A stretch of DNA of 60,174 nt from Candidatus Heimdallarchaeota archaeon (GCA_015523565.1 WAKA01000203.1:1-60174), one strand, 5' to 3'; counted from the first letter of the stretch, positions 28,990-49,880 are shown. Program-made: numbers and translations. The notes: generated from the sequence alone by a model not told the origin.

Positions 28990-30264
28990 TCAGAAGAACT
29001 TTTCCTTGCACCATGGACAGTTGTTGCTTATTGAAAACCAGTTCTCCATATGACTTGAGTGGATTGGGTGGTGACAGGATCTGCATCTTTCAAAATCCTC
29101 TTTTTCAGGAGATATGATCCCTCTGCAAATGGAGCAGTATTCAATTGGCTTCAAACAGTTGGGACAGGTGTCCATGCCATATGACTTACTAGGCAACGGG
29201 GTTTGGCAATGGGGGCAATAGTCAGATCTAAAACGTCTATATGCTCTTCTAGTGCCCTGACTGACATTGTATGCAAATCTTTGGGTTGCTTGGATCCTTT
29301 TCTTGATCCATTCAGGATTTGCAATGAAAATGATTGTTGTGGGTATGATCAATAATATTGTGGAAATCTGAAGCAGTACTGGATCATTGTTTCTCCAATA
29401 TCCTATGATGGAGATGCCTGCAAATAGGTATCCTATCATGGGGATGTTCTGGGCTATTTGAAGGGCGTTTTCCCTTAGGTAGGCAGAAAGGACTGCAATC
29501 TGCCTTCCCAACAGATGGACAATTCCAACGGTGAAGTTCCAAAATCTGGCAAGGTATTGGGGGAGGTGGGTTATCCATTCAACAATTGTCTTGGATATGA
29601 TTACAATCCAACTCCAAAAGAAGAATGCCCCTGCAAACAATAACTCTCGTATTTCGAACAATGTCATTGCAATTCCGATTGCTATAAAGACAGTCATGAC
29701 TTGGAAGGCGTTTACAGGGAAGCCAATGCCTGTAATTGCACTTGAAAGGGATTGGTCAAGATCAGTGAACAAGAAAAACAGGATTATGATGATGTCAATG
29801 AATATGAGTACAACAACTGGAGAATGCCTTATTCTCAACCATAGCCTTTCCATTCCTACTGTGAATGCAATCCTGAATTTGTTGATCGCGGAAATTATGT
29901 AAGTGTTAAGTTCATATATGGTGGTGACAAACCCCAATACAACAAGCAGAATGCCTCCAATTGCCATTGTCCACTGTAGTGAAATGTTTATGTTCACTTG
30001 AGCCACAAGTAGCAGTAATGGAATCGAAAAGATGACAACTCCTAAGTAGACAATGATTGAGCCCAATGCCCAGTACTCTGCACCAAGTCGTTGCAGTCTT
30101 TCAATAATGTAGCTAAGCATCAGTATGAGAAATCCCAAGGTCAAAAGCACCAGTCCTGTTGTCTGGCTGTCAAATGTCCCTTGATTTGGGATGAACATGA
30201 CAATCATTCCAATGATGGCGAGCACTATCCCCCCTTGTCCCAAACGTGTTGTGTTCAAATTCAT
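28990..30264 (-). CDS. Polytopic membrane protein with C-terminal zinc ribbon and RING-like finger (putative E3 ligase)
   Basis: About 8 TM, then CPHC..CPNC, CSIC, CRSCHHPIHSSH..W....CPWC. Confidence 0.82.
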   Translation of the reverse strand: MNLNTTRLGQGGIVLAIIGMIVMFIPNQGTFDSQTTGLVLLTLGFLILMLSYIIERLQRLGAEYWALGSIIVYLGVVIFSIPLLLLVAQVNINISLQWTMAIGGILLVVLGFVTTIYELNTYIISAINKFRIAFTVGMERLWLRIRHSPVVVLIFIDIIIILFFLFTDLDQSLSSAITGIGFPVNAFQVMTVFIAIGIAMTLFEIRELLFAGAFFFWSWIVIISKTIVEWITHLPQYLARFWNFTVGIVHLLGRQIAVLSAYLRENALQIAQNIPMIGYLFAGISIIGYWRNNDPVLLQISTILLIIPTTIIFIANPEWIKKRIQATQRFAYNVSQGTRRAYRRFRSDYCPHCQTPLPSKSYGMDTCPNCLKPIEYCSICRGIISPEKEDFERCRSCHHPIHSSHMENWFSISNNCPWCKEKFF

Positions 30265-32072
30265 GGTTTGTTACCTCCGAAATCCACACCTTCTATTTTC
30301 AGAGTTTCTCTTCTGGCATAGGTATACCTTGGTATCAGTATCCCAAAAGTCAATATCATCCCACCAACAATGAATCTTTGCAGGTTTGGAAGATCAGGGA
30401 TGATGCTTTCAAACATTCCTTTCCCAGACAGACCTGAGAATATTAGCAAGAACCCATAGATAATTCCCAAAATCCCCAAGAAAAAGGAAGAAACTAGGAC
30501 AATGTTTTCAACTATTGCCTCAAGCAAATTGACTATGGCTTTTCCTATTCCTCCAAAATTATGCCAGATGAACCTCAAAATTGCCCTTGGAAATCCAAAG
30601 ACAAGTGTTCCCCAAAACCTGCTCACAAATCCCAAAATTACAAGGGATGCAATGAAAAGTCCAATTCTCAAATATTTGATTTCTGGTATCCATAAATTGA
30701 AAATTGAGACAAACATGAGCCCATATCCTGTGATTTTTCCAACTACTTGCAGGTTTTTCAGCTTTTCATATAGTTGTTTCAACATTTCCATAAAGCCACG
30801 TGTTGTACTTTCAAAACCAAAAATCAAAGATAGAAACCCCGAAAGGAAAAACAAATACCTCGGAACGTTTTTGTAACCAATAAGGGTCAAAACAATGAAG
30901 AAAAAGAATCCTGCAATCCCCAATGTGCCTCTCAGTACCTTCAAATTGGAAAGCCTCCTGAAAATGACTCCTCCAACTATCCTCATGACATGCATAAATC
31001 TTACTAAAGAAAGGAAAAACCTGTCAATAAACCTGAAAATCCTGAAATTATTGAAGGATGAAAGAAACAGTCCTGTCAACACAATATAGGGGATTTTGTA
31101 ATTTGTTGGTATCCTTTTGACATTAATCAGCATGACAATCCCCACAAAAAATAAATGCAGATAATATTTGGACGAAACTCTCCAAAGCCATTTGGATGCG
31201 TACCAAAGTTTTCTATATGCAACAAACTTATTGTAGGAAGATAACAGAAGGATACCTGCAATCCAAGTCGGTTTCTGATATTGCAAAGGCACGAATGGTG
31301 ATGCCATGACAGTTGCAAATCCAAGAACGACTGCAAATCTACTTGGGTCTTCCATGAAAAACATTATGGACTTCATTATCGATTCTTTTATCTTTGTAAT
31401 GAATGTGATATATCTCTTGAAATTATTTGAAATATAGATAATCATTGTTTTACTTACGAAAACTATGTCTCTGAAGAGAGCCAATATGACAAATATGCCT
31501 CCAAGCAATGTAAAATTGATAGGTGAATTGTTGAAATAACCCAATTGGTCAAAAACAATGAAACCAATCCCTGTAAAAAACAAAATGAATTCCGCAAATC
31601 TAAGGGGATCATTAACTAGTATCAATTTAAGCCTATAAACTGCACTTTTAATTGTCTGGATCAAAAGGATTGGAAGCACTTTTGCGAATGAAATTATTGT
31701 CCTGAAAAGAAATTCAAAAAGCTTGTCGATAAGAAATATCCTTGCAATAATTGACCCTATTGCCAATCCGAATGAATATGGGGCGAGGTTCCACTCTGGA
31801 ATGAAACTTGAGACTACAAGAAGACCTGATGCAATGAAAATTGCTATTTTCAAGAATGAATTACCCAACTGCGATTTTGTAAACAATGCAACACTGACAA
31901 AAATGAATGTCAACACGGATAATATCTGAAGCATTAGAATATCCGCTTTCTTGCCTATCATCACAAAAAATAGCAAGCCAATAGCCCCCAAAAAGGCTGT
32001 GTTTGTGAAAACCAAAAAAATATTCTTTGCAAGGATTAAACCAGTTTCATTTGCCCCAGTTTCTTTTTTCAT
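30261..32072 (-). CDS. Large polytopic membrane protein with internal repeats
   Basis: More than 14 hydrophobic helices arranged as hairpins; repeats NDPLRFA/EDPSRFA and LLSSYNKF/FLSSFNNF; 4-bp overlap with the RING gene. Confidence 0.78.
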   Translation of the reverse strand: MKKETGANETGLILAKNIFLVFTNTAFLGAIGLLFFVMIGKKADILMLQILSVLTFIFVSVALFTKSQLGNSFLKIAIFIASGLLVVSSFIPEWNLAPYSFGLAIGSIIARIFLIDKLFEFLFRTIISFAKVLPILLIQTIKSAVYRLKLILVNDPLRFAEFILFFTGIGFIVFDQLGYFNNSPINFTLLGGIFVILALFRDIVFVSKTMIIYISNNFKRYITFITKIKESIMKSIMFFMEDPSRFAVVLGFATVMASPFVPLQYQKPTWIAGILLLSSYNKFVAYRKLWYASKWLWRVSSKYYLHLFFVGIVMLINVKRIPTNYKIPYIVLTGLFLSSFNNFRIFRFIDRFFLSLVRFMHVMRIVGGVIFRRLSNLKVLRGTLGIAGFFFFIVLTLIGYKNVPRYLFFLSGFLSLIFGFESTTRGFMEMLKQLYEKLKNLQVVGKITGYGLMFVSIFNLWIPEIKYLRIGLFIASLVILGFVSRFWGTLVFGFPRAILRFIWHNFGGIGKAIVNLLEAIVENIVLVSSFFLGILGIIYGFLLIFSGLSGKGMFESIIPDLPNLQRFIVGGMILTFGILIPRYTYARRETLKIEGVDFGGNKP

Positions 32073-32245: not shown

Positions 32246-34243
32246 ATGGGTATGCCTGTTGATTTTGCAATAATGCTTGGGTTTGCCGCAACCCAATTTA
32301 CTGGGAAAGCCATTTCATATCTCATTCATGCTGGAATAAACAAGGCAGAAGATGAAATTGAGGATATGGCCATCAAATCAATCAGCAAGATGGTTCAAAA
32401 GGCACTTGGAAAAAGATTTGAAAAGACAGAAATGGACAAGCAACAAATTGAAATGCTAATCAGGGAACAAGTTGAAAAACTCATTGATGAAATCATTGAT
32501 GAAAAAAGTTCAAAGTCAAAATTAAAGACAGATTTCATAAAACAGACGAACTTTTCTGAGAAGATAGATGAAATCCTGAATATGGGGGAGGATCAATTCA
32601 AGAAATATCTTTCACGTTTTGATCAACTTGGAGATAGCAAAAATTTTCCAGAACCCACATATAAAACTAAATGGAATGCCATTCAGAAATACCTATTGAG
32701 AAAAAACGTTCTGAAAGAGAATGCAAAGACCCTTGGTGTCAAAGAATTTAACATAGATGGTGTTCCGTTTCTTCCCTTGACCCCTTTGGACCTTGACGAG
32801 GAAAAAATATTGGAAATGATAACTCAATTGCATAAGGGCAGACAAACCACAAATATCCCACTCAAAGATATTGCTAACCTTTCTGGAATGGAATTCAACA
32901 AGGTTTACAACTTAACGACCAAGCTTTTGAAAGATGGGTACATAGAGGGAAAGATACTTACTTCAGAAACCCAAATGTTAAGAAATGACCAATTGGAATT
33001 GTCTGGTGATTGGAATAAGCTGGAAGAGTACAAGGAAGACATTATATACATTAATTCACTTATAAAGGTTCATAAATATGAAGAAGTTCTGCAGGCTTTG
33101 TCAACAATAAATTTGAAATATAGGGTCAAGAAAGACAATGAAGTCAAAAAAATCGTGGAACGGCTACTGGCTGTTGAAACAATGCATAAAATTGAATTGC
33201 AGATTGTTGAACTAGTAGAAAATAACGCCTCACCAAAATTTGTTTTGGAAAAAATAGATGAAATTCTCACCCTACCTTTGCCAGTTCATATGATAAAAGA
33301 ATTTGAGTTATTGAAAGAATATTATTGCCTTAAAAAAGAGGCAATTGATTATCTATTACAAAAAAACTATGAAATGGCTACTGCTAAAATAAAATCCCTT
33401 ATTCCGAAAATTCCTCAACAATATGAGGATTTTGAAAAGGCATGGTCCAAAAATTTCATTGAAACTGTGTCATATCGAATTAAAAGCAACAAGGAATTGC
33501 AAATCAAGTATAATGTAATGAAGAATGCCCTACTTGAGCAAATTGAATTGAGAAACCTTCAACCTTCAAAACAATTGTTTGATAGGGTAAAGGTTCTTTC
33601 AAAGAGAGTTGGGAAAGATTCCGATATACTGGAATTACAAAATAAATTCAATGAAGCATTTGGGCTTGTTGAATTTAGAGGTACACAAATTCCAAACCAC
33701 GAGAAGGAGGCAATTGAAAATATTGAAAGACAGGTCAATGGAACCTTCAAATTGTTAAGACAAGTCAGGTGGAATGATTTTGGCATTGTAATCCGCAACA
33801 ATAGTGTGGTTCAAATCGGTTTTTATTCAAGGCATTTGAAATCCTTGCCCAACGACCTGTCCAAATTGTCTTCCCTTAAATTATTGAATCTGACTCAAAC
33901 ATATCTGAAAGCTTTTCCAGACTGGATTGCAAATCTTCAGGACATTTCAACCCTGATGCTACGTTTCTGTTCATTCAATAAGTTTCCAATAATAATTACA
34001 AAATTGAAAAACCTCCGAAGAATTGATCTGTCTTACAATCAAATTGACTCCATTCCAGATGAGATTTCTGCATTGGAAAACCTTGTTGAGATAAGAGTAA
34101 ATCACAATCGAATCAAAAAGCTTCCTGAAGTCCTTTTGGAAATGAAAAACCTGAAAGTGGTCTATTGCCTTGAAAATAAACTGGACAATGGAAGTATGAA
34201 GATATTGGATACATTGCGTGAAAGAGGGGTCAGGATTTCTTGA
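32246..34243 (+). CDS. Multidomain LRR protein (helical N-terminus, PCI-like winged helix, helical region, C-terminal LRRs)
   Basis: IPLKDIANLSGMEFNKVYNLTTKLLKDGYIEGKI wHTH; about 6 LRRs; cap LRERGVRIS. Confidence 0.85.
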   Translation: MGMPVDFAIMLGFAATQFTGKAISYLIHAGINKAEDEIEDMAIKSISKMVQKALGKRFEKTEMDKQQIEMLIREQVEKLIDEIIDEKSSKSKLKTDFIKQTNFSEKIDEILNMGEDQFKKYLSRFDQLGDSKNFPEPTYKTKWNAIQKYLLRKNVLKENAKTLGVKEFNIDGVPFLPLTPLDLDEEKILEMITQLHKGRQTTNIPLKDIANLSGMEFNKVYNLTTKLLKDGYIEGKILTSETQMLRNDQLELSGDWNKLEEYKEDIIYINSLIKVHKYEEVLQALSTINLKYRVKKDNEVKKIVERLLAVETMHKIELQIVELVENNASPKFVLEKIDEILTLPLPVHMIKEFELLKEYYCLKKEAIDYLLQKNYEMATAKIKSLIPKIPQQYEDFEKAWSKNFIETVSYRIKSNKELQIKYNVMKNALLEQIELRNLQPSKQLFDRVKVLSKRVGKDSDILELQNKFNEAFGLVEFRGTQIPNHEKEAIENIERQVNGTFKLLRQVRWNDFGIVIRNNSVVQIGFYSRHLKSLPNDLSKLSSLKLLNLTQTYLKAFPDWIANLQDISTLMLRFCSFNKFPIIITKLKNLRRIDLSYNQIDSIPDEISALENLVEIRVNHNRIKKLPEVLLEMKNLKVVYCLENKLDNGSMKILDTLRERGVRIS

Positions 34244-34265: not shown

Positions 34266-34754
34266 TTAAATTTGATACTCTTTTTTGTTCATGACTTGCC
34301 TGACAGTTAACAATCCGTTTTCAGGATCAAATATTATTGTCCGCCCATAGTTTTCCCCCACATCTTGAGCGACAATTCTTATCCCAAGGTTTTTTAAGAC
34401 ATTGACAACAGAATCTATATTTCTTCTGCCAATATCCAAGGAATCTGTAGAAACGTTGGTTTCAAACATTTTTGCACCGCCTGCAATCTTGGCAACAATG
34501 TTCTCTCTTTTTGCCCCCATGGCTTCCATTCTTCTAACTGCCTCTGGTATTGCAGTCGTCGCGAATTTGCCTGGGTTGGCTTTTCCATCATTGTTCATTT
34601 CTGTAGGGAGAAGAACATGTGCAAGTGCGGCGATTCGGGTTGTTCTATCGTAAAGAACCACTCCGACACAACTTCCCAATGCAAGAGCCTGTAACTTTGA
34701 GGGAGGTTTGCCAATCTGAATTTCTCCAATTTTCGCCGTAAGTACCTCTGTCAT
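34266..34754 (-). CDS. cheD: Chemoreceptor glutamine deamidase CheD
   Basis: LGSCVGV, AHVLLP, GKFA, AKIAGGAKMF, IGRRN, DVG..YGRT; ATGA overlap with cheC. Confidence 0.96.
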   Translation of the reverse strand: MTEVLTAKIGEIQIGKPPSKLQALALGSCVGVVLYDRTTRIAALAHVLLPTEMNNDGKANPGKFATTAIPEAVRRMEAMGAKRENIVAKIAGGAKMFETNVSTDSLDIGRRNIDSVVNVLKNLGIRIVAQDVGENYGRTIIFDPENGLLTVRQVMNKKEYQI

Positions 34755-35422
34755 GAATACATTTCCTCCCAATTTTCTCCATAAATGGTTGTCATCAACG
34801 CATTCATTGCCCGTGTGTCTGGAAGAAGGAGAATGTCTCCTTTGATTTTTTCACCGTCCGTAAAAATGTCAACTTCCACAAGCAAAAACCTTTCCACATT
34901 TTCAGGATCTGCCGAAATCAATTCATCAGTCAACGCCCCAACCATGTCTATTGCAAGGCTTGGGGCGTGTGGAAACCATCTTGTCTCGGTGAAACTGTTG
35001 ATGGCTGTTATTGTATGTATCAAAAGAATATTTCCTGTTTCCTTGATGAGTGATATGGAAACCTCATCAAGATTTTCCAAACTTTCAGGAATGGGTGACG
35101 CAATTAAGGTTTTCAACAATTGCTTTACCGATGAGAAATCAAATATCAACAATAAGTTCAATAAGCCCTTGTCTTCTTCTGATGTTTCCTGTAGTATTCC
35201 TGCGACCACTTCTTCTGGAGATGCGGCCAAATGTTCACTGACTTCCTCAACCTTTACAAACCTTACTCTGGGGATGCTCATGTCCACTTTCCTGTTCAAA
35301 AGCTGAGAAAGTGCCGTGGCTGCATGACCTACTCCGATATTGCTTAATTCTTGCAGGGCTTCTATCTTTGGGTCGTAGTCTTGAAAGAAGCTGTCATCAG
35401 GAATCTTTAAACCCATCTGCAT
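34751..35422 (-). CDS. cheC: CheY-P phosphatase CheC
   Basis: Two ExxN motifs (LQELSNIGVGHAATALSQL and IKETGNIL); adjacent to cheD. Confidence 0.93.
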   Translation of the reverse strand: MQMGLKIPDDSFFQDYDPKIEALQELSNIGVGHAATALSQLLNRKVDMSIPRVRFVKVEEVSEHLAASPEEVVAGILQETSEEDKGLLNLLLIFDFSSVKQLLKTLIASPIPESLENLDEVSISLIKETGNILLIHTITAINSFTETRWFPHAPSLAIDMVGALTDELISADPENVERFLLVEVDIFTDGEKIKGDILLLPDTRAMNALMTTIYGENWEEMYS

Positions 35423-38785: not shown

Positions 38786-39868
38786 TTGCCTGTTACTGTA
38801 TTGATCGCAGATGATTCACCTTTTATGTTGAAACTGCTTGAAAATACAATCAAAACCGACCCCAATTTGAAAATCATAGGCATTGCCAAACGAGGGGTTG
38901 AATGTATTACTCAAGTAATAACAAAGAGACCAAGGGTTGTAATACTTGATATCATGCTTCCTGATGAAAGTGGTCTCAATATTGTCTATCAGATTATGCG
39001 TGCAAGACCCACCGCTGTTTTGCTGTTTTCTTCCTTGACTGCTGAAAAAGTCAAACAGGACTCTCTTGTCTTCAATTATGGGATTGTCGATTTTATCAGC
39101 AAGCCCCCTGCGGATGTCGATGACCCTGTATTGTATTTGAGAAAAGTCCTCCTGCCAAAAGTGCATACTCTTGCCAAACTGACTGTCTCTAAATTTCGTA
39201 CCATGATCTCAACCACAAATGATGAATTTCTCGGAAGAATGCCGATACATACTGCAAAGGCAGTCAGTATCACCAAACCCAGTGAAAGTAGACTTTCCCT
39301 TTCAAAGAAGGCAATAATTATCGGAGCAAGTACAGGCGGTCCTGGTGCACTGTCTGAATTATTTCCAATGCTTCCAGATAATCTTCCCCCCATTATTGTT
39401 GTCCAGCACATGCCTGCCGGGTTCATTGAATCATTTGCCAGCAGGCTTGACAGATGTTCCAAAATCAAGGTTGAAGCTGCGTCCAATTTGAAAGAGATCA
39501 AACCTGGTCACGCATACATTGCTCAAGGAGGAAAGCATCTGGTTTTAGAAAAATCAGAGAATGGAAAAATTATCTGTAAATTGGAAGAAACTGAAATGGT
39601 CAATTTTGTCCGCCCGTCTGTTGATGTGACTTTGATCTCTGCGGTTCCGATATTCAAGGACAAATTGATTGTGGTCATCATGACAGGAATGGGGAAAGAC
39701 GGTCTACAAGGCGCCAAACTTGCAAAGAAATATGGTGCAAAAGTCATTGCACAAAGTGAAGCAGATTCTGTCATTTTTGGAATGAACAAAGCTGTCATTG
39801 ATGCTGGTATCGTTGATAAGGTGGCACCCATAAAGGACTTGGCTAAGGTAATTGTTGAATTATCCTAA
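38786..39868 (+). CDS. cheB: Chemotaxis methylesterase CheB (receiver plus esterase)
   Basis: ADDS, LDIMLP and KP receiver motifs; GASTGGP, VQHMP, RPSVD and MTGMGKDG catalytic motifs. Confidence 0.97.
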   Translation: MPVTVLIADDSPFMLKLLENTIKTDPNLKIIGIAKRGVECITQVITKRPRVVILDIMLPDESGLNIVYQIMRARPTAVLLFSSLTAEKVKQDSLVFNYGIVDFISKPPADVDDPVLYLRKVLLPKVHTLAKLTVSKFRTMISTTNDEFLGRMPIHTAKAVSITKPSESRLSLSKKAIIIGASTGGPGALSELFPMLPDNLPPIIVVQHMPAGFIESFASRLDRCSKIKVEAASNLKEIKPGHAYIAQGGKHLVLEKSENGKIICKLEETEMVNFVRPSVDVTLISAVPIFKDKLIVVIMTGMGKDGLQGAKLAKKYGAKVIAQSEADSVIFGMNKAVIDAGIVDKVAPIKDLAKVIVELS

Positions 39869-40227
39869 GAAGAAACAGTCTTTTCAATGGCTTTGACGAT
39901 TTCCTCATTTCTGAAAGGTTTAATGATGAATTCCCTTGCACCCGACTTAATGGCATCCAAAACAAATGCCTCTTGACCTAAAGCGGTAACCATGACAATT
40001 CTAGCATTTGGATCAAACGACATAATCTGTTTGACGGCTTCAATACCGTTTTGCTTAGGCATAACTATATCAAGTGTCATACAATCTGGTCTCTCTTTTG
40101 CCCAAATCTCAACTGCGTCAAGTCCTGTTTCACCTTCCGCAACTATTTCATGACCTGCCTCTGTTAAAATCCTTCTCAATACTAATCTCATGAATTTTGC
40201 ATCATCTACAATTGCTATTCTAGCCAT
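39865..40227 (-). CDS. cheY: CheY response regulator (copy 1)
   Basis: VDDAKFMR, LDIVMP, VTALGQ, FIIKPF; single receiver domain. Confidence 0.93.
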   Translation of the reverse strand: MARIAIVDDAKFMRLVLRRILTEAGHEIVAEGETGLDAVEIWAKERPDCMTLDIVMPKQNGIEAVKQIMSFDPNARIVMVTALGQEAFVLDAIKSGAREFIIKPFRNEEIVKAIEKTVSS

Positions 40228-40357: not shown

Positions 40358-40729
40358 TCATGGGGAATCAAGCACATTGTTGATCACTTGTGCCAATTGA
40401 CTCAGTCTAAATGGTTTAGTGACAAAATCCTTTGCTCCTGCACGCAACGCAGGCTGGACAATGTGGGGGCTGGATATTGAAGTGACCATCACAACCTTTG
40501 CATCTGGATTGAGTGTTAAAATCCTCTTAAGAACCTGCAACCCATCCATTTTGGGCATGACAACATCAAGTGTCACAAGGTCAATCTCATGCATATGTTC
40601 TGCATAGATGTTCACTGCATCAACTCCATTGACTGCCCTGTATACTACATCATGCCCCATCTTGCGCAAGAGTTTCTCTATGACCATTAACATGAACCTT
40701 GCGTCATCTACTATCATTATCCTAGCCAA
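40358..40729 (-). CDS. cheY: CheY response regulator (copy 2)
   Basis: VDDARFM, LDVVMP, VTS, FVTKPF; tandem paralogue of copy 1. Confidence 0.9.
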   Translation of the reverse strand: MARIMIVDDARFMLMVIEKLLRKMGHDVVYRAVNGVDAVNIYAEHMHEIDLVTLDVVMPKMDGLQVLKRILTLNPDAKVVMVTSISSPHIVQPALRAGAKDFVTKPFRLSQLAQVINNVLDSP

Positions 40730-40751: not shown

Positions 40752-41711
40752 TTAACCATTCATATGTTCTTGAATTTTCCGAACAAGTTCATTCTTATTG
40801 CTTCTACTACTGACATTTTCTATTCCCATTTCAATTGCTATACGTAGAAGCTCGCTTTTTGTCAAACTGCTCAGATCTAATGGACTTTCTCCAAACTGGT
40901 CGTCCATTGCAGGTTCTGGACTTTTTTGTTTTGGTTTTACTGGGCTTGGTTTGGTACCCTTAACCGTGGTGTCCTTCTTGGATTTTGTTTTTGCCGTTTC
41001 TTTTTTAGTCGCGGGTTTTTCTTTTTTTACTACCTGCACTCCTTTGTCATCCACTATGACATCCTCATCATCGGCAAGGTCATCCAATGAAAAATCAGAA
41101 CCAAATTTATCCTGTGAGGAAATTTTTTCGATCTGTTCATTGGTCACAGTAATTTCATCTGTCGCCCCACTTTCTATTTCCTTGGAGAAGACTTGCTCAC
41201 GCACCGCCGCAAGTTTTTCGAGTTCTGACACCTCATATTCTGACAATATGACTTGCAATGTCAAAATGATCACAATTCCAAGTTCGGTCTGAACCACTCC
41301 TTCTATGAATGGTGTTGCAGTCTCCTTTGAAATCAACGCCAATGACTCTTGGATATCACTTTCATCTACGGTTATCACTGCTTCAACATAATCTACAAGA
41401 AGACCAACCAATGATTTGCCGACATTTACCATCAGCACATAATTTCTTTCATCATCATCATAGTTTCTCTTCGGCTTCCTGCTTTCCTCTATCAGTAACC
41501 TCCTTTTCAAGTCAATGGTGGATATGATTTGACCTCGAAAGTTGATGACGCCTGCAATATAATCTGGTGCTTGGGGTATCGGTGTGATAGTTTCAGGAAC
41601 AAAGACCTCTTGGACATTATGCACATCAAATGCAAAATATTCATCATTTAACAGGAATGTGACCAATTTTTTCTGCTTAACTGTCTGTGCAGTGCTCATA
41701 GATAACCTCAT
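40752..41711 (-). CDS. cheW: CheW with long acidic/basic linker and C-terminal Rho_N/HeH-like domain
   Basis: VTFLL..EYFA..V..VQEV, ITPIPQAPDYIAGVINFRGQI, GLLVD.V; tail LSSLTKSELLRIAIEMGI..VSS..KNELV..I. Confidence 0.92.
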   Translation of the reverse strand: MRLSMSTAQTVKQKKLVTFLLNDEYFAFDVHNVQEVFVPETITPIPQAPDYIAGVINFRGQIISTIDLKRRLLIEESRKPKRNYDDDERNYVLMVNVGKSLVGLLVDYVEAVITVDESDIQESLALISKETATPFIEGVVQTELGIVIILTLQVILSEYEVSELEKLAAVREQVFSKEIESGATDEITVTNEQIEKISSQDKFGSDFSLDDLADDEDVIVDDKGVQVVKKEKPATKKETAKTKSKKDTTVKGTKPSPVKPKQKSPEPAMDDQFGESPLDLSSLTKSELLRIAIEMGIENVSSRSNKNELVRKIQEHMNG

Positions 41712-47981: not shown

Positions 47982-49880
47982 TTGGATGAGTACAAAGACA
48001 TTTTCATAGCAGAATTGGATGAAAACACGAAACTTTTGAGTGATTCCCTACTTAAACTAGAGAGGAGTCCCTCCCAACTGAAACCATTGGAAGATGTTAT
48101 CAGGGCCGCACACACTGTGAAAGGTATGGCCGCCACTATGGGATTTGAAAACCTTACCAGGTTGACTCACACAGTGGAATCAAAATTAAGGGAAATCCAA
48201 CAGCAGGGTAAGATCTCCAAAAACTTGGTTGATTCACTCTTCCAAGTCGTGGATCGATTGGAACAATTCAAGGAATTTATGGAAGATGACAAGGATTTAT
48301 CAAAAATCCAAGTTGATGATTTGATAAGGTTTCTTGAGAAATATGACCTTCAGGCTGACCTAGAACTTGAACAGGAAGGCGCCACAGAACCTCGACTCAA
48401 ATTGGAAAACAAATTCTCAATAACCGTGAAATTCAAACGCGGTGCCAAACTGTTGGGTGCAAGAGGATTTCAGTTGTTAAGGGCCATTGAGAATGTCGCC
48501 CAAGTGATCAAGTCTACTCCTCCTCGAAGCGACTTGGAAGAAGGAAAACTCCTTGGGGATGTAACTTTTGAAATCATTACAAATGAGGACGAGGTTAGCC
48601 TCAGGCAGGTTATTTCATCTATTGAGGATATTGATGAAGTTATCATTTCCCGACTTGTTGAAAAAGAAGAGGGTCCAAAAATCAAAGTTACAAGAGGCAT
48701 CCAGACAGTCCGTGTAAACCTCAACCAATTGGACGAGGTCGTTGACCTTCTTGGAGAACTTGTTCTTAACAGGGGACGCTTAGAATCCATTCTAGGAAAC
48801 ATGATCAATCCAGAAATCGTTGAAAACCTGAATACATTTGACTCATTGATCACCACAATCCAAGACAAATTGATGAGAATGAGAATGGTTCCATTGAACC
48901 GTATCTTCGAAACCTATCCAAGAACAGTCAGGGATATTGCGTCCAAAAAGGGACAAGACATTCAAATCTTTCTCCAAGGTTCCCATATTGAATTGGATCG
49001 ATCTGTCATTGACCAAGTGAATGAGGCATTGTTGCACCTCATCAGAAATGCCGCAACCCATGGGATTGAACCTCCTGATATCCGCAAAAAGCTTGGAAAG
49101 CCAGTTGTCGGAACAATTCGCGTTTCTGCTTTCCAAGATAAGGGAGAGGTACAAATCGTGGTCGAGGATGACGGTAGCGGTCTTGATCTGGAAAAAATCA
49201 GGAAAAAAGGAATCCAAATGGGGTTGATTGATGAAAAAACAAGATTAACCAGATCACAGGTTGCCGCACTTATCTTCCATCCTGGCTTTAGCACAGCAGA
49301 CGTTCTTACTGATGCCGCAGGACGAGGGGTTGGCATGGATATCGTGAAAGAAACAATAAATGAGATTTCAGGATCTATTGAAATTAGATCCAAGAGAAAT
49401 GTGGGCACCCAATTCATCATACGGGTTCCTCAAACACTCGCCATCATTGAAGCATTGATCGTTCAGATCAACAATTACCATTTTGCCCTGCCAATGCTGA
49501 ACATTGAAAAAATCTTTTCGGAAGATGATCCCTCAATAGAATACCATGAGGACGATGTATTCCTGAAATATGAAAAATTCACAATTCCTGTTATTGACCT
49601 TGAAAAGTCACTTATTGTCCCATCCCATATCAAACCCGCATATGACGAAGATCAAAGCATGAAAAAACAAAAGAAAAAGGTAGTCCTTTGGGAAAAGGGC
49701 GGCAAGCGGGTTGCTTTCAAGGTCACCAATGTTCTTGAACAGAGGGAAATAGTCACTAAGCAATTTGATGAGGTATTGGCAGAATATCCTGGATTTTCTG
49801 GAGCCACAATCTTAAAAGAAGAAGAGGTTGTGCTTATCCTTGACCCTTCAACATTCCATGAACTGACTTTGTACGCATGA
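47982..49880 (+). CDS. cheA: Chemotaxis histidine kinase CheA (P1-P5)
   Basis: RAAHTVKG (P1), P2-like region, LLGELV, RMVP, HLIRNA, DDGSG, IFHPGFST, GRGVGMD, GATIL (P5). Confidence 0.97.
   Translation: MDEYKDIFIAELDENTKLLSDSLLKLERSPSQLKPLEDVIRAAHTVKGMAATMGFENLTRLTHTVESKLREIQQQGKISKNLVDSLFQVVDRLEQFKEFMEDDKDLSKIQVDDLIRFLEKYDLQADLELEQEGATEPRLKLENKFSITVKFKRGAKLLGARGFQLLRAIENVAQVIKSTPPRSDLEEGKLLGDVTFEIITNEDEVSLRQVISSIEDIDEVIISRLVEKEEGPKIKVTRGIQTVRVNLNQLDEVVDLLGELVLNRGRLESILGNMINPEIVENLNTFDSLITTIQDKLMRMRMVPLNRIFETYPRTVRDIASKKGQDIQIFLQGSHIELDRSVIDQVNEALLHLIRNAATHGIEPPDIRKKLGKPVVGTIRVSAFQDKGEVQIVVEDDGSGLDLEKIRKKGIQMGLIDEKTRLTRSQVAALIFHPGFSTADVLTDAAGRGVGMDIVKETINEISGSIEIRSKRNVGTQFIIRVPQTLAIIEALIVQINNYHFALPMLNIEKIFSEDDPSIEYHEDDVFLKYEKFTIPVIDLEKSLIVPSHIKPAYDEDQSMKKQKKKVVLWEKGGKRVAFKVTNVLEQREIVTKQFDEVLAEYPGFSGATILKEEEVVLILDPSTFHELTLYA

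Follow-up and report, generated by a model that had tools for sequence, protein, structure and literature searches.

A CheW coupling protein with a C-terminal helix-extension-helix tail in one order of Heimdallarchaeia

Few parts of prokaryotic chemosensory arrays are as conserved and as simple in architecture as CheW, and each of its accessory modules (CheV and ParP) has brought to light a new principle of how adaptation works or how arrays are placed. Here, we analyze a stretch of 60,174 nucleotides (nt) from a Candidatus Heimdallarchaeota archaeon (GCA_015523565.1, WAKA01000203.1:1-60174; hereafter, the window) and, in particular, the gene cheW-HeH located at 40752..41711 on the minus strand, the product of which combines a CheW core with a C-terminal tail assigned to the helix-extension-helix (HeH) class. 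An earlier note on this DNA, which had proposed the fusion from the sequence alone, did not recognize it from described systems. Our literature search likewise found no description of a CheW with a Rho_N, HeH, or SAP tail, nor an Asgard case; the CheW-HeH architecture is a new form of a CheW with an accessory module.

The solved single-domain CheW proteins, from Thermoanaerobacter tengcongensis (2qdl), Thermotoga maritima (2ch4/1k0s), and Escherichia coli (2ho9/6s1k), share the core of the protein analyzed here, and the gene is found together with cheA, cheY, and cheB. Canonical CheW, however, stops at about 150-170 amino acids (aa), whereas this protein adds about 160 residues that comprise a helix, an acidic arm, and the HeH module. 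CheV, in which CheW is fused to a receiver (REC) domain, is similar in that a CheW carries a C-terminal module; the pairing of cheW-HeH with the receiver gene cheY2 and the existence of a REC-tail protein hint at a receiver near CheW in the present case, too. Unlike CheV, this protein lacks a REC domain (no match to Response_reg in the Pfam search). The NWETF pentapeptide of the high-abundance receptors of E. coli recruits CheR and CheB via a flexible C-terminal linker. An array-anchored flexible arm could similarly raise the local concentration of an adaptation enzyme, and CheR in these archaea has a lineage-matched basic extension; by contrast with NWETF, the arm is on CheW and not on the receptor, its terminus is a folded domain in place of a pentapeptide, and the docking is proposed here by analogy. 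In ParP of Vibrio, a C-terminal CheW-like domain integrates in the array, and another region binds the ParA-like ATPase ParC (PMC5706961). The resemblance consists in a CheW-type domain within the array combined with a second region that tethers the array to something else, and the difference is that the extra module here is a C-terminal HeH on an acidic arm, which does not imply a partner of the ParC type. The ParA/MinD-type positioning of arrays, for example, by MinD4 in Haloferax volcanii, is a looser parallel (bioRxiv 10.1101/2020.04.03.021790).

The cheW-HeH gene corresponds to a 319-aa open reading frame (ORF) in the ORF list and translation, the coordinates given above including the stop codon. 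The residues MRLS that follow from the annotated ATG at 41711 (window 41697-41711) are absent in all homologues, which open at MSTAQ, that is, at Met5 of the 319-aa ORF. Translation from Met5 (nt 41699) yields 315 aa, matching the 315-aa database entry P0002. Because the homologues and P0002 begin at MSTAQ, Met5 is probably the true start; the numbering below is that of the ORF. The canonical CheW domain spans residues 16-158 (41238..41666, minus strand) and was detected by Pfam PF01584 with 109.2 bits against a cut-off of 23.5 (E = 1.6e-31). In the CheW scan of the whole genome, this protein came out on top, with 111.3 bits. A scan against NCBIfam recovered CheW alone and nothing further, and the Pfam domains of the whole protein were CheW and Rho_N, with no others. 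AlphaFold2 (AF2) modeling from a 24-sequence alignment yielded a CheW core with a predicted local distance difference test (pLDDT) score above 90, and Foldseek aligned this core with solved CheW structures (2qdl, E = 3e-13, 35% identity; 2ch4 and 6s1k were also matched). The normal CheW core described in the earlier note is, therefore, upheld by the Pfam and Foldseek matches alike. By sequence and predicted fold, the product of cheW-HeH is a canonical CheW, which should couple receptors to CheA.

The C-terminal module (residues 273-319; 40755..40895, minus strand) was delineated by profile, model, and conservation and consists of an FGxSPLDL lead followed by the HeH proper. The Rho_N profile (Pfam PF07498) aligned with residues 279-313 (40773-40877, minus strand), where the stretch LDLSSLTKSELL...VRKI is present (residues 278-313). 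For this single sequence, the match is marginal: 21.4 bits with the full-length protein, under the gathering cut-off of 24.9, and 25.3-26.3 bits with the isolated tail, above it. However, 19 of 20 orthologous tails independently matched Rho_N at E ≤ 0.01 (best E = 2.1e-10), and, given these independent matches and the conservation of the tail, the HeH pattern is more than chance. In the AF2 model, residues 280-319 had pLDDT values of 92-96 and formed two helices (285-295 and 306-317); a model of the 47-residue tail alone (pLDDT 89) also showed two helices joined by an extended loop. The structural neighbors of the tail model are the Rho N-terminus, SAP, the C-terminal domain of T4 endonuclease VII, the SAP domain of SLX4, the LEM domain of emerin, and the C-terminal domain of MANF/CDNF. 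These were matched by VIA-align with Z = 5.0-6.3, below the value of 8 under which a match may reflect merely a common arrangement, and with a root-mean-square deviation of 1.6-3.3 over 40-46 residues; their Foldseek E-values exceeded 1, with no match at E ≤ 0.001. These structural scores are weak for so small a domain, yet mutually consistent and in agreement with the sequence profile. A sequence search with the tail profile against all PDB chains produced no match at E ≤ 10, and a feature search of the ESM Atlas pointed to Rho_N/SAP clusters at 0.82, a sub-threshold value that agrees with the other results but is not evidence by itself. The assignment of the tail to the Rho_N/HeH (SAP/LEM-like) class, as the earlier note had it, is supported by the profile scan of the tail, the orthologues, and the predicted fold. 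That a CheW is normally devoid of such a tail, another point of that note, is likewise supported by the profile, fold, and comparative evidence.

Compared with other members of the Rho_N (PF07498)/SAP/LEM/HeH class (SAP of the Ku70/PIAS/SAF type, the emerin LEM domain, and T4 endonuclease VII), the tail is alike in profile and two-helix shape. It differs in its near-zero charge (the HeH core carries a net charge between -4 and +4), in its own FGxSPLDL lead, and in its location on a signaling scaffold rather than on a nucleic-acid enzyme. In contrast to Rho factor, the protein contains neither an OB fold nor a RecA-type ATPase domain according to Pfam, and the HeH is located at the extreme C-terminus. 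Two conserved features set the tail subtype apart from the generic HeH pattern: its SPLDL lead and the hydrophobic residue found where this protein has I293. The Lys, Ser, and Thr residues typical of the HeH family are retained at both helix N-termini (K285, R303, and K306), a region that we take to be the canonical DNA-contacting face of SAP/HeH domains. Going by the titles of the matched entries, the fold class includes both DNA binders (SAP, HeH, and the C-terminal domain of endonuclease VII) and protein binders (emerin LEM-BAF, MANF/CDNF-BiP, SLX4-MUS81, and PIAS1). The only other Rho_N-type protein of this genome is a 387-aa protein (G000:C15, L002 472-1635, plus strand) with three HeH-like repeats (YWLEDH...ENYDN...L...L...Y), the last of which reaches the Rho_N cut-off with 26.6 bits.

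A word-indexed search retrieved 44 homologues of 190-520 aa, mostly 250-315 aa, the majority of which cover 97-99% of the query. Where named by the source, these are CheW proteins of Heimdallarchaeota or Kariarchaeaceae, and the database entries describe them as plain CheW. The consensus of the tail is SPLDLxSLTKxELLKIAIEMxIDxVSTRSxKxxLIxKIxEKMG. Mean pairwise identity is 59% for the tail and 55% for the CheW core, compared with 35% for the helix that follows the core and 23% for the linker. The tail is retained down to about 40% CheW identity and is intact in all complete orthologues; it is under selection as strong as that on the CheW core. Because the tail is as conserved as the core across two families, a specific binding function at the array baseplate is very likely, as judged from these alignments.

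Among 301 Asgard genomes, 10 were positive with the tail profile, with one match each, which invariably fell within a CheW ORF of 226-343 aa; the tail in the window itself matched at 95 bits (40758-40895). The positive genomes include seven of the 10 sampled genomes of the family denoted f1, to which the window's own, likewise positive, genome belongs, and two of the three genomes of family f4, from the same order. In f1 and f4 genomes, the CheW with the top score is the one that carries the tail, and the tail was not found in the che systems of families f2 and f3 of this order. Judging by these matches, the fusion is real and clade-wide, present in two families of one Heimdallarchaeial order and not Asgard-wide. 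The earlier note had named the lack of any HeH/Rho_N profile match and of conservation in related genomes as outcomes that would speak against it; both the match and the conservation were found, the latter within these two families. In a search of 1.84 billion representative proteins, seven matches scored at least 67 bits, all of them CheW proteins or C-terminal CheW fragments. Beneath 67 bits there is a gap to about 46 bits, where generic Rho_N/SAP modules on small proteins and DUF4912 proteins appear; related HeH modules are also present in phage families with endonuclease VII or Arc-like repressor annotation and in a C5 DNA methylase. No instance of the tail subtype was found on DNA-related proteins of these lineages, either in the 301 Asgard genomes or in the 1.84 billion proteins.

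The phage-type character of the closest non-CheW relatives and the restriction of the feature to one order are what one would expect of a neutral appendage, that is, of a domain acquired fortuitously, for instance, by way of a mobile element, that plays no part in chemotaxis. Such an origin without function is highly improbable considering that, between families, the tail has stayed as similar as the CheW core has although the linker has drifted, that it is intact in all complete orthologues, and that it has been copied onto a second chemotaxis protein.

This second protein is a CheY-type receiver. The gene cheY2 (40358..40729, minus strand; Pfam Response_reg) begins 22 nt downstream of cheW-HeH in the window, and the adjacency of the two genes is kept in eight f1 genomes. 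The only non-CheW carrier of the tail found among the 1.84 billion representative proteins is a CheY2 orthologue, P0070 (193 aa), in which a CheY-type receiver precedes a copy of the tail that includes an FGxxPLDL lead. The receiver of P0070 is 53% identical to the cheY2 product of the window, and its tail is 52% identical to that of the window. P0070 is encoded on 11-kb metagenomic contigs with the gene order cheD-cheC-cheA-cheB-cheY / cheW(272 aa)-cheY2+tail-response regulator, where the 272-aa CheW is presumably tailed, too. The REC+tail fusion is limited to one narrow clade, the variants of which (P0131-P0138) are at least 88% identical; an assembly artefact was ruled out by the presence of the fusion on many contigs. 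Thus, the tail subtype has so far been found on chemotaxis proteins only. The f4 tailed CheW (222 aa, with a linker of about 15 residues; L020 2290-3099 of G175:C28, minus strand) is not followed by cheY2; the gene ahead of it encodes an unassigned 269-aa protein, the C-terminus of which is rich in Lys and Glu.

The copy on CheY2 and the short f4 linker bear on the possibility that the tail acts within the array, either by self-association or by binding CheA, the tip of the methyl-accepting chemotaxis protein (MCP), or a neighboring CheW, and so cross-links and stabilizes the array. Variants of this explanation are that the tail packs against the CheW core of the same protein and regulates or auto-inhibits it, or that the copy on CheY2 recruits the receiver to the array in a non-covalent, CheV-like arrangement. 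There is a precedent in ParP of Vibrio, which shows that a CheW-like protein with an extra module can stabilize and localize arrays (PMC5706961). A tail duplicated onto CheY2 would gain immediate function if its target were at the array, and the linker of about 15 residues in f4 would, in that family, imply a fixed target within a few nanometers of the CheW C-terminus. However, the linkers of 35-100 acidic residues found elsewhere are better suited for capture at a distance than for cross-linking of a lattice, and the contacts with the lattice would be conjectural. SAP/HeH domains are, moreover, typically monomeric. We consider an array-internal role improbable.

The segment between the core and the tail starts with an alpha-helix (residues 161-180; 41172..41231, minus strand) that was recognized in the AF2 model and the alignment; it is moderately conserved, with the consensus SEYDxKExEKLAxxRE. 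The helix is followed by a disordered arm (residues 181-272; 40896..41171, minus strand), delineated by pLDDT values below 50, the charge table, and the alignment. The linker as a whole is about 95 aa long in this protein (181-275), with most of residues 182-274 at pLDDT below 50 in the AF2 model, and its length varies from 15 to 99 aa among the homologues. Two motifs are conserved in the arm, DE(I/V)xVT (residues 185-190; 41142-41159) and DFxxDDL (residues 206-218; 41058-41096), the latter within the string DFSLDDLADDEDV; E186, D210, and D211 are nearly invariant in the alignment. A Lys/Thr/Pro-rich insert (residues 227-267; 40911-41033) with 14 K+R in 41 aa is limited to this genus. The arm is, overall, net acidic in all 23 of the tail-bearing homologues analyzed, and the whole extension has a net charge of -5 to -21 in all f1 homologues analyzed and of -1 in the short-linker f4 form. 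The earlier note had described a disordered linker of about 120 aa, first acidic and then Lys/Thr/Pro-rich. Disorder and the acidic part are borne out, and the length has to be corrected to about 95 aa preceded by a helix; the Lys/Thr/Pro-rich part is present in this protein but is confined to the genus, and the arm as a whole is net acidic. The variable length of the linker fits a tether rather than a rigid module.

The single cheR gene of this genome (G000:C112, L045 2346-3773, minus strand) encodes CheR_N and methyltransferase domains followed by an extension of about 150 residues that has a net charge of +27 and no Pfam match. A basic CheR extension is present in every lineage with a tailed CheW (orthologues L046-L062). 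The extensions of f1 CheR proteins are 129-156 aa long, with a net charge of +18 to +37, and share an amphipathic helix with invariant F, R, and W (consensus RLxELKNFRxxFEERKKxWEERI). Those of f4 are 65-76 aa long, with a net charge of +11 to +13 and a diverged version of the helix; here, the shorter and less basic CheR extension goes with the CheW linker of about 15 residues, which is nearly uncharged. Where a CheR of the same order belongs to another che system, only 0-9 residues follow its methyltransferase domain. A profile of the f1 CheR helix matched 10 of the 301 Asgard genomes, all f1, with one match each; nine of these matches are in the CheR reading frame, and one (G160) is on a short fragment at a contig end. 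All eight tail-positive f1 genomes are among the 10. As far as sequences can tell, the CheW and CheR extensions complement each other in presence, size, and charge, which suggests docking of the CheR tail by the CheW arm, the HeH, or both.

We tentatively favor a reading of the extension as a flexible docking arm that is anchored in the array and binds a protein, for which CheR is the best candidate. In this reading, cheW-HeH encodes the principal coupling protein of an F1-like chemosensory system in an archaeon, and its CheW core is built into the receptor-CheA lattice. The helix, the acidic disordered arm of 15-100 residues, and the 40-residue HeH would project from the baseplate into the cytoplasm, where the arm would capture a partner and keep it at the array. 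CheR could be captured through its basic C-terminal extension with the amphipathic helix, in which case the arm would be a CheW-borne functional analogue of the NWETF tether for CheR and CheB on E. coli receptors. In favor of this reading, the CheW core is canonical, is the best of the genome, and is encoded beside two CheY proteins, CheB, and CheA in a genome with 13 MCP genes; the tail subtype is specific to chemotaxis proteins; protein-binding domains of the SAP/LEM fold are among the neighbors of the predicted structure; and a near-neutral HeH, an acidic extension, and basic CheR extensions occur in the same lineages. Between a protein partner belonging to the pathway and nucleic acid, the former appears somewhat more likely. 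Were CheR the partner, adaptation-enzyme tethering would have been invented independently here, and the co-evolved charged extensions of the two proteins would be explained.

Several points weigh against docking of CheR. The docking itself is something we infer from sequence comparison, and the co-occurrence of the CheW and CheR extensions amounts to one or two evolutionary events in one clade, so that it could reflect the common descent of a single che system instead of co-adaptation. Two of the f1 genomes that have the CheR motif, 86% and 68% complete, yielded no tailed CheW. DNA, RNA, or membrane are equally conceivable targets of a basic CheR tail, which would also be expected if both proteins met on DNA. 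Outside CheW, the sequences nearest to the tail are attached to proteins that act on DNA, and residues of the K285, R303, and K306 type are retained at the helix N-termini. A four-chain complex prediction (CheA, CheW core, CheY2, and the tail as partner), which was run without controls, returned a score of 0.01 with a mark of 0.32 and speaks neither for nor against binding. The architecture, fold class, conservation, restriction to chemotaxis proteins, and co-occurrence and charge complementarity with the CheR extension are observed; the projection of the arm from the array, the docking of a partner, and the identity of this partner are inferred. For the functional reading in the earlier note, a tether to the nucleoid, RNA, or a partner scaffold, the indirect evidence is mixed and neither confirms nor refutes it.

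Some of these points lead to the main alternative, a tether to the nucleoid or to nucleic acid, along the lines of the earlier note. A HeH that is weak as a monomer would acquire high avidity from the hundreds of CheW copies in the lattice and would couple the array, together with CheY2 in one clade, to the nucleoid for positioning, partitioning, or signaling to DNA; the basic tail of CheR would co-localize on the same DNA. ParA-family ATPases have been described to position cargo on the nucleoid (reviews PMC11407121, PMC9178275). Compatible with this alternative are the membership of the tail in the Rho_N/SAP/LEM HeH class, the conservation of basic and Ser/Thr residues at the helix N-termini, the occurrence of its next-best relatives on DUF4912 proteins, a C5 DNA methylase, Arc-like repressors, and phage endonuclease VII, and the Lys-rich segment of the arm in this genus, with its 14 K+R in 41 aa. 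The REC+HeH protein P0070, furthermore, looks like a response regulator whose output domain binds DNA. Against this alternative, the HeH has almost no net charge, and the adjoining arm is strongly acidic in all f1 homologues analyzed; the Lys-rich insert is not conserved beyond the genus; the tail subtype was not found on DNA-related proteins of these lineages; and most MCPs are transmembrane proteins, so that arrays are expected at the membrane rather than in the cytoplasm. We know of no precedent for a DNA-binding CheW. On the whole, we regard a nucleoid or nucleic-acid tether as possible, though rather unlikely. The more specific version, in which the HeH is a true DNA-binding module that becomes multivalent on the CheW lattice and couples a membrane-embedded array to the chromosome, is unlikely; under it, and given the apparent absence of CheF, ArlD/E, and archaellin, the tail might possibly be part of a non-motility output, with REC-HeH as a DNA-targeted receiver in one clade. 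The HeH/LEM/SAP fold class is used by eukaryotes at the inner nuclear membrane. Should the partner prove to be DNA, this would be the first direct link between an array and the nucleoid and, in Asgard archaea, a membrane-chromosome tether made by the fold class of the eukaryotic nuclear envelope. Considering the docking arm and these alternatives together, the extension probably tethers the sensory array to a partner such as the basic tail of CheR or DNA.

The location of the arrays was assessed from the receptors. Hydrophobic segments resembling transmembrane segments were found in 10 of the 11 MCPs examined and, in the eleventh (L022), only upstream of the first Met; therefore, the arrays should be membrane-bound, and cytoplasmic, nucleoid-borne arrays were down-weighted. 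Inspection of the C-termini of 11 MCPs revealed no common pentapeptide-like docking motif, which is in keeping with a docking arm on CheW.

With regard to output, no Pfam match to CheF, ArlD/E, archaellin, or bacterial flagellin was obtained in this genome or in two congeners searched, a result that is compatible with a nucleoid tether. The wider survey covered this genome (G000) and five relatives (G015, G045, G145, G166, and G175), all metagenome-assembled genomes that are 82-94% complete; archaellin was present in one of the six and CheF in none. Several archaellum components have been reported in Heimdallarchaeia (preprint 10.1101/385732), and, because of this report, the missing output genes were not taken as absent.

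The other che genes of the window are interleaved with housekeeping genes. A second CheY-type receiver gene, cheY1 (39865..40227, minus strand; Pfam Response_reg, E = 4.7e-29), and cheB, encoding REC and methylesterase domains (38786..39868, plus strand; Pfam), are located close to cheY2, and cheA (47982..49880, plus strand) encodes a kinase with the P1-P2-P3-P4-P5 architecture (Pfam Hpt, P2, H-kinase_dim, HATPase_c, and CheW). Orthologues of this cheA occur in the tail-bearing relatives. In addition, Pfam identified cheC (34751-35422) and cheD (34266-34772), both on the minus strand. The genome is 90% complete and contains two che systems, that of the window and one on contig C108. The C108 cluster (L010 5109-10450) encodes, in this order, CheW (188 aa), a 669-aa CheW-domain protein that matches only part of the CheW profile and is unassigned in the rest, CheY, CheA (597 aa), and CheC, and none of these proteins carries a HeH tail. 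A Rho_N-like match inside this second CheA (E = 0.46) falls within the ATPase domain and was regarded as chance.

Between the che blocks of the window lie a gene for a 665-aa protein with C-terminal leucine-rich repeats (32246-34243, plus strand) and, adjoining it, two large ORFs of 603 and 424 aa (28990-32072, minus strand), one of which showed a weak zinc-ribbon match.

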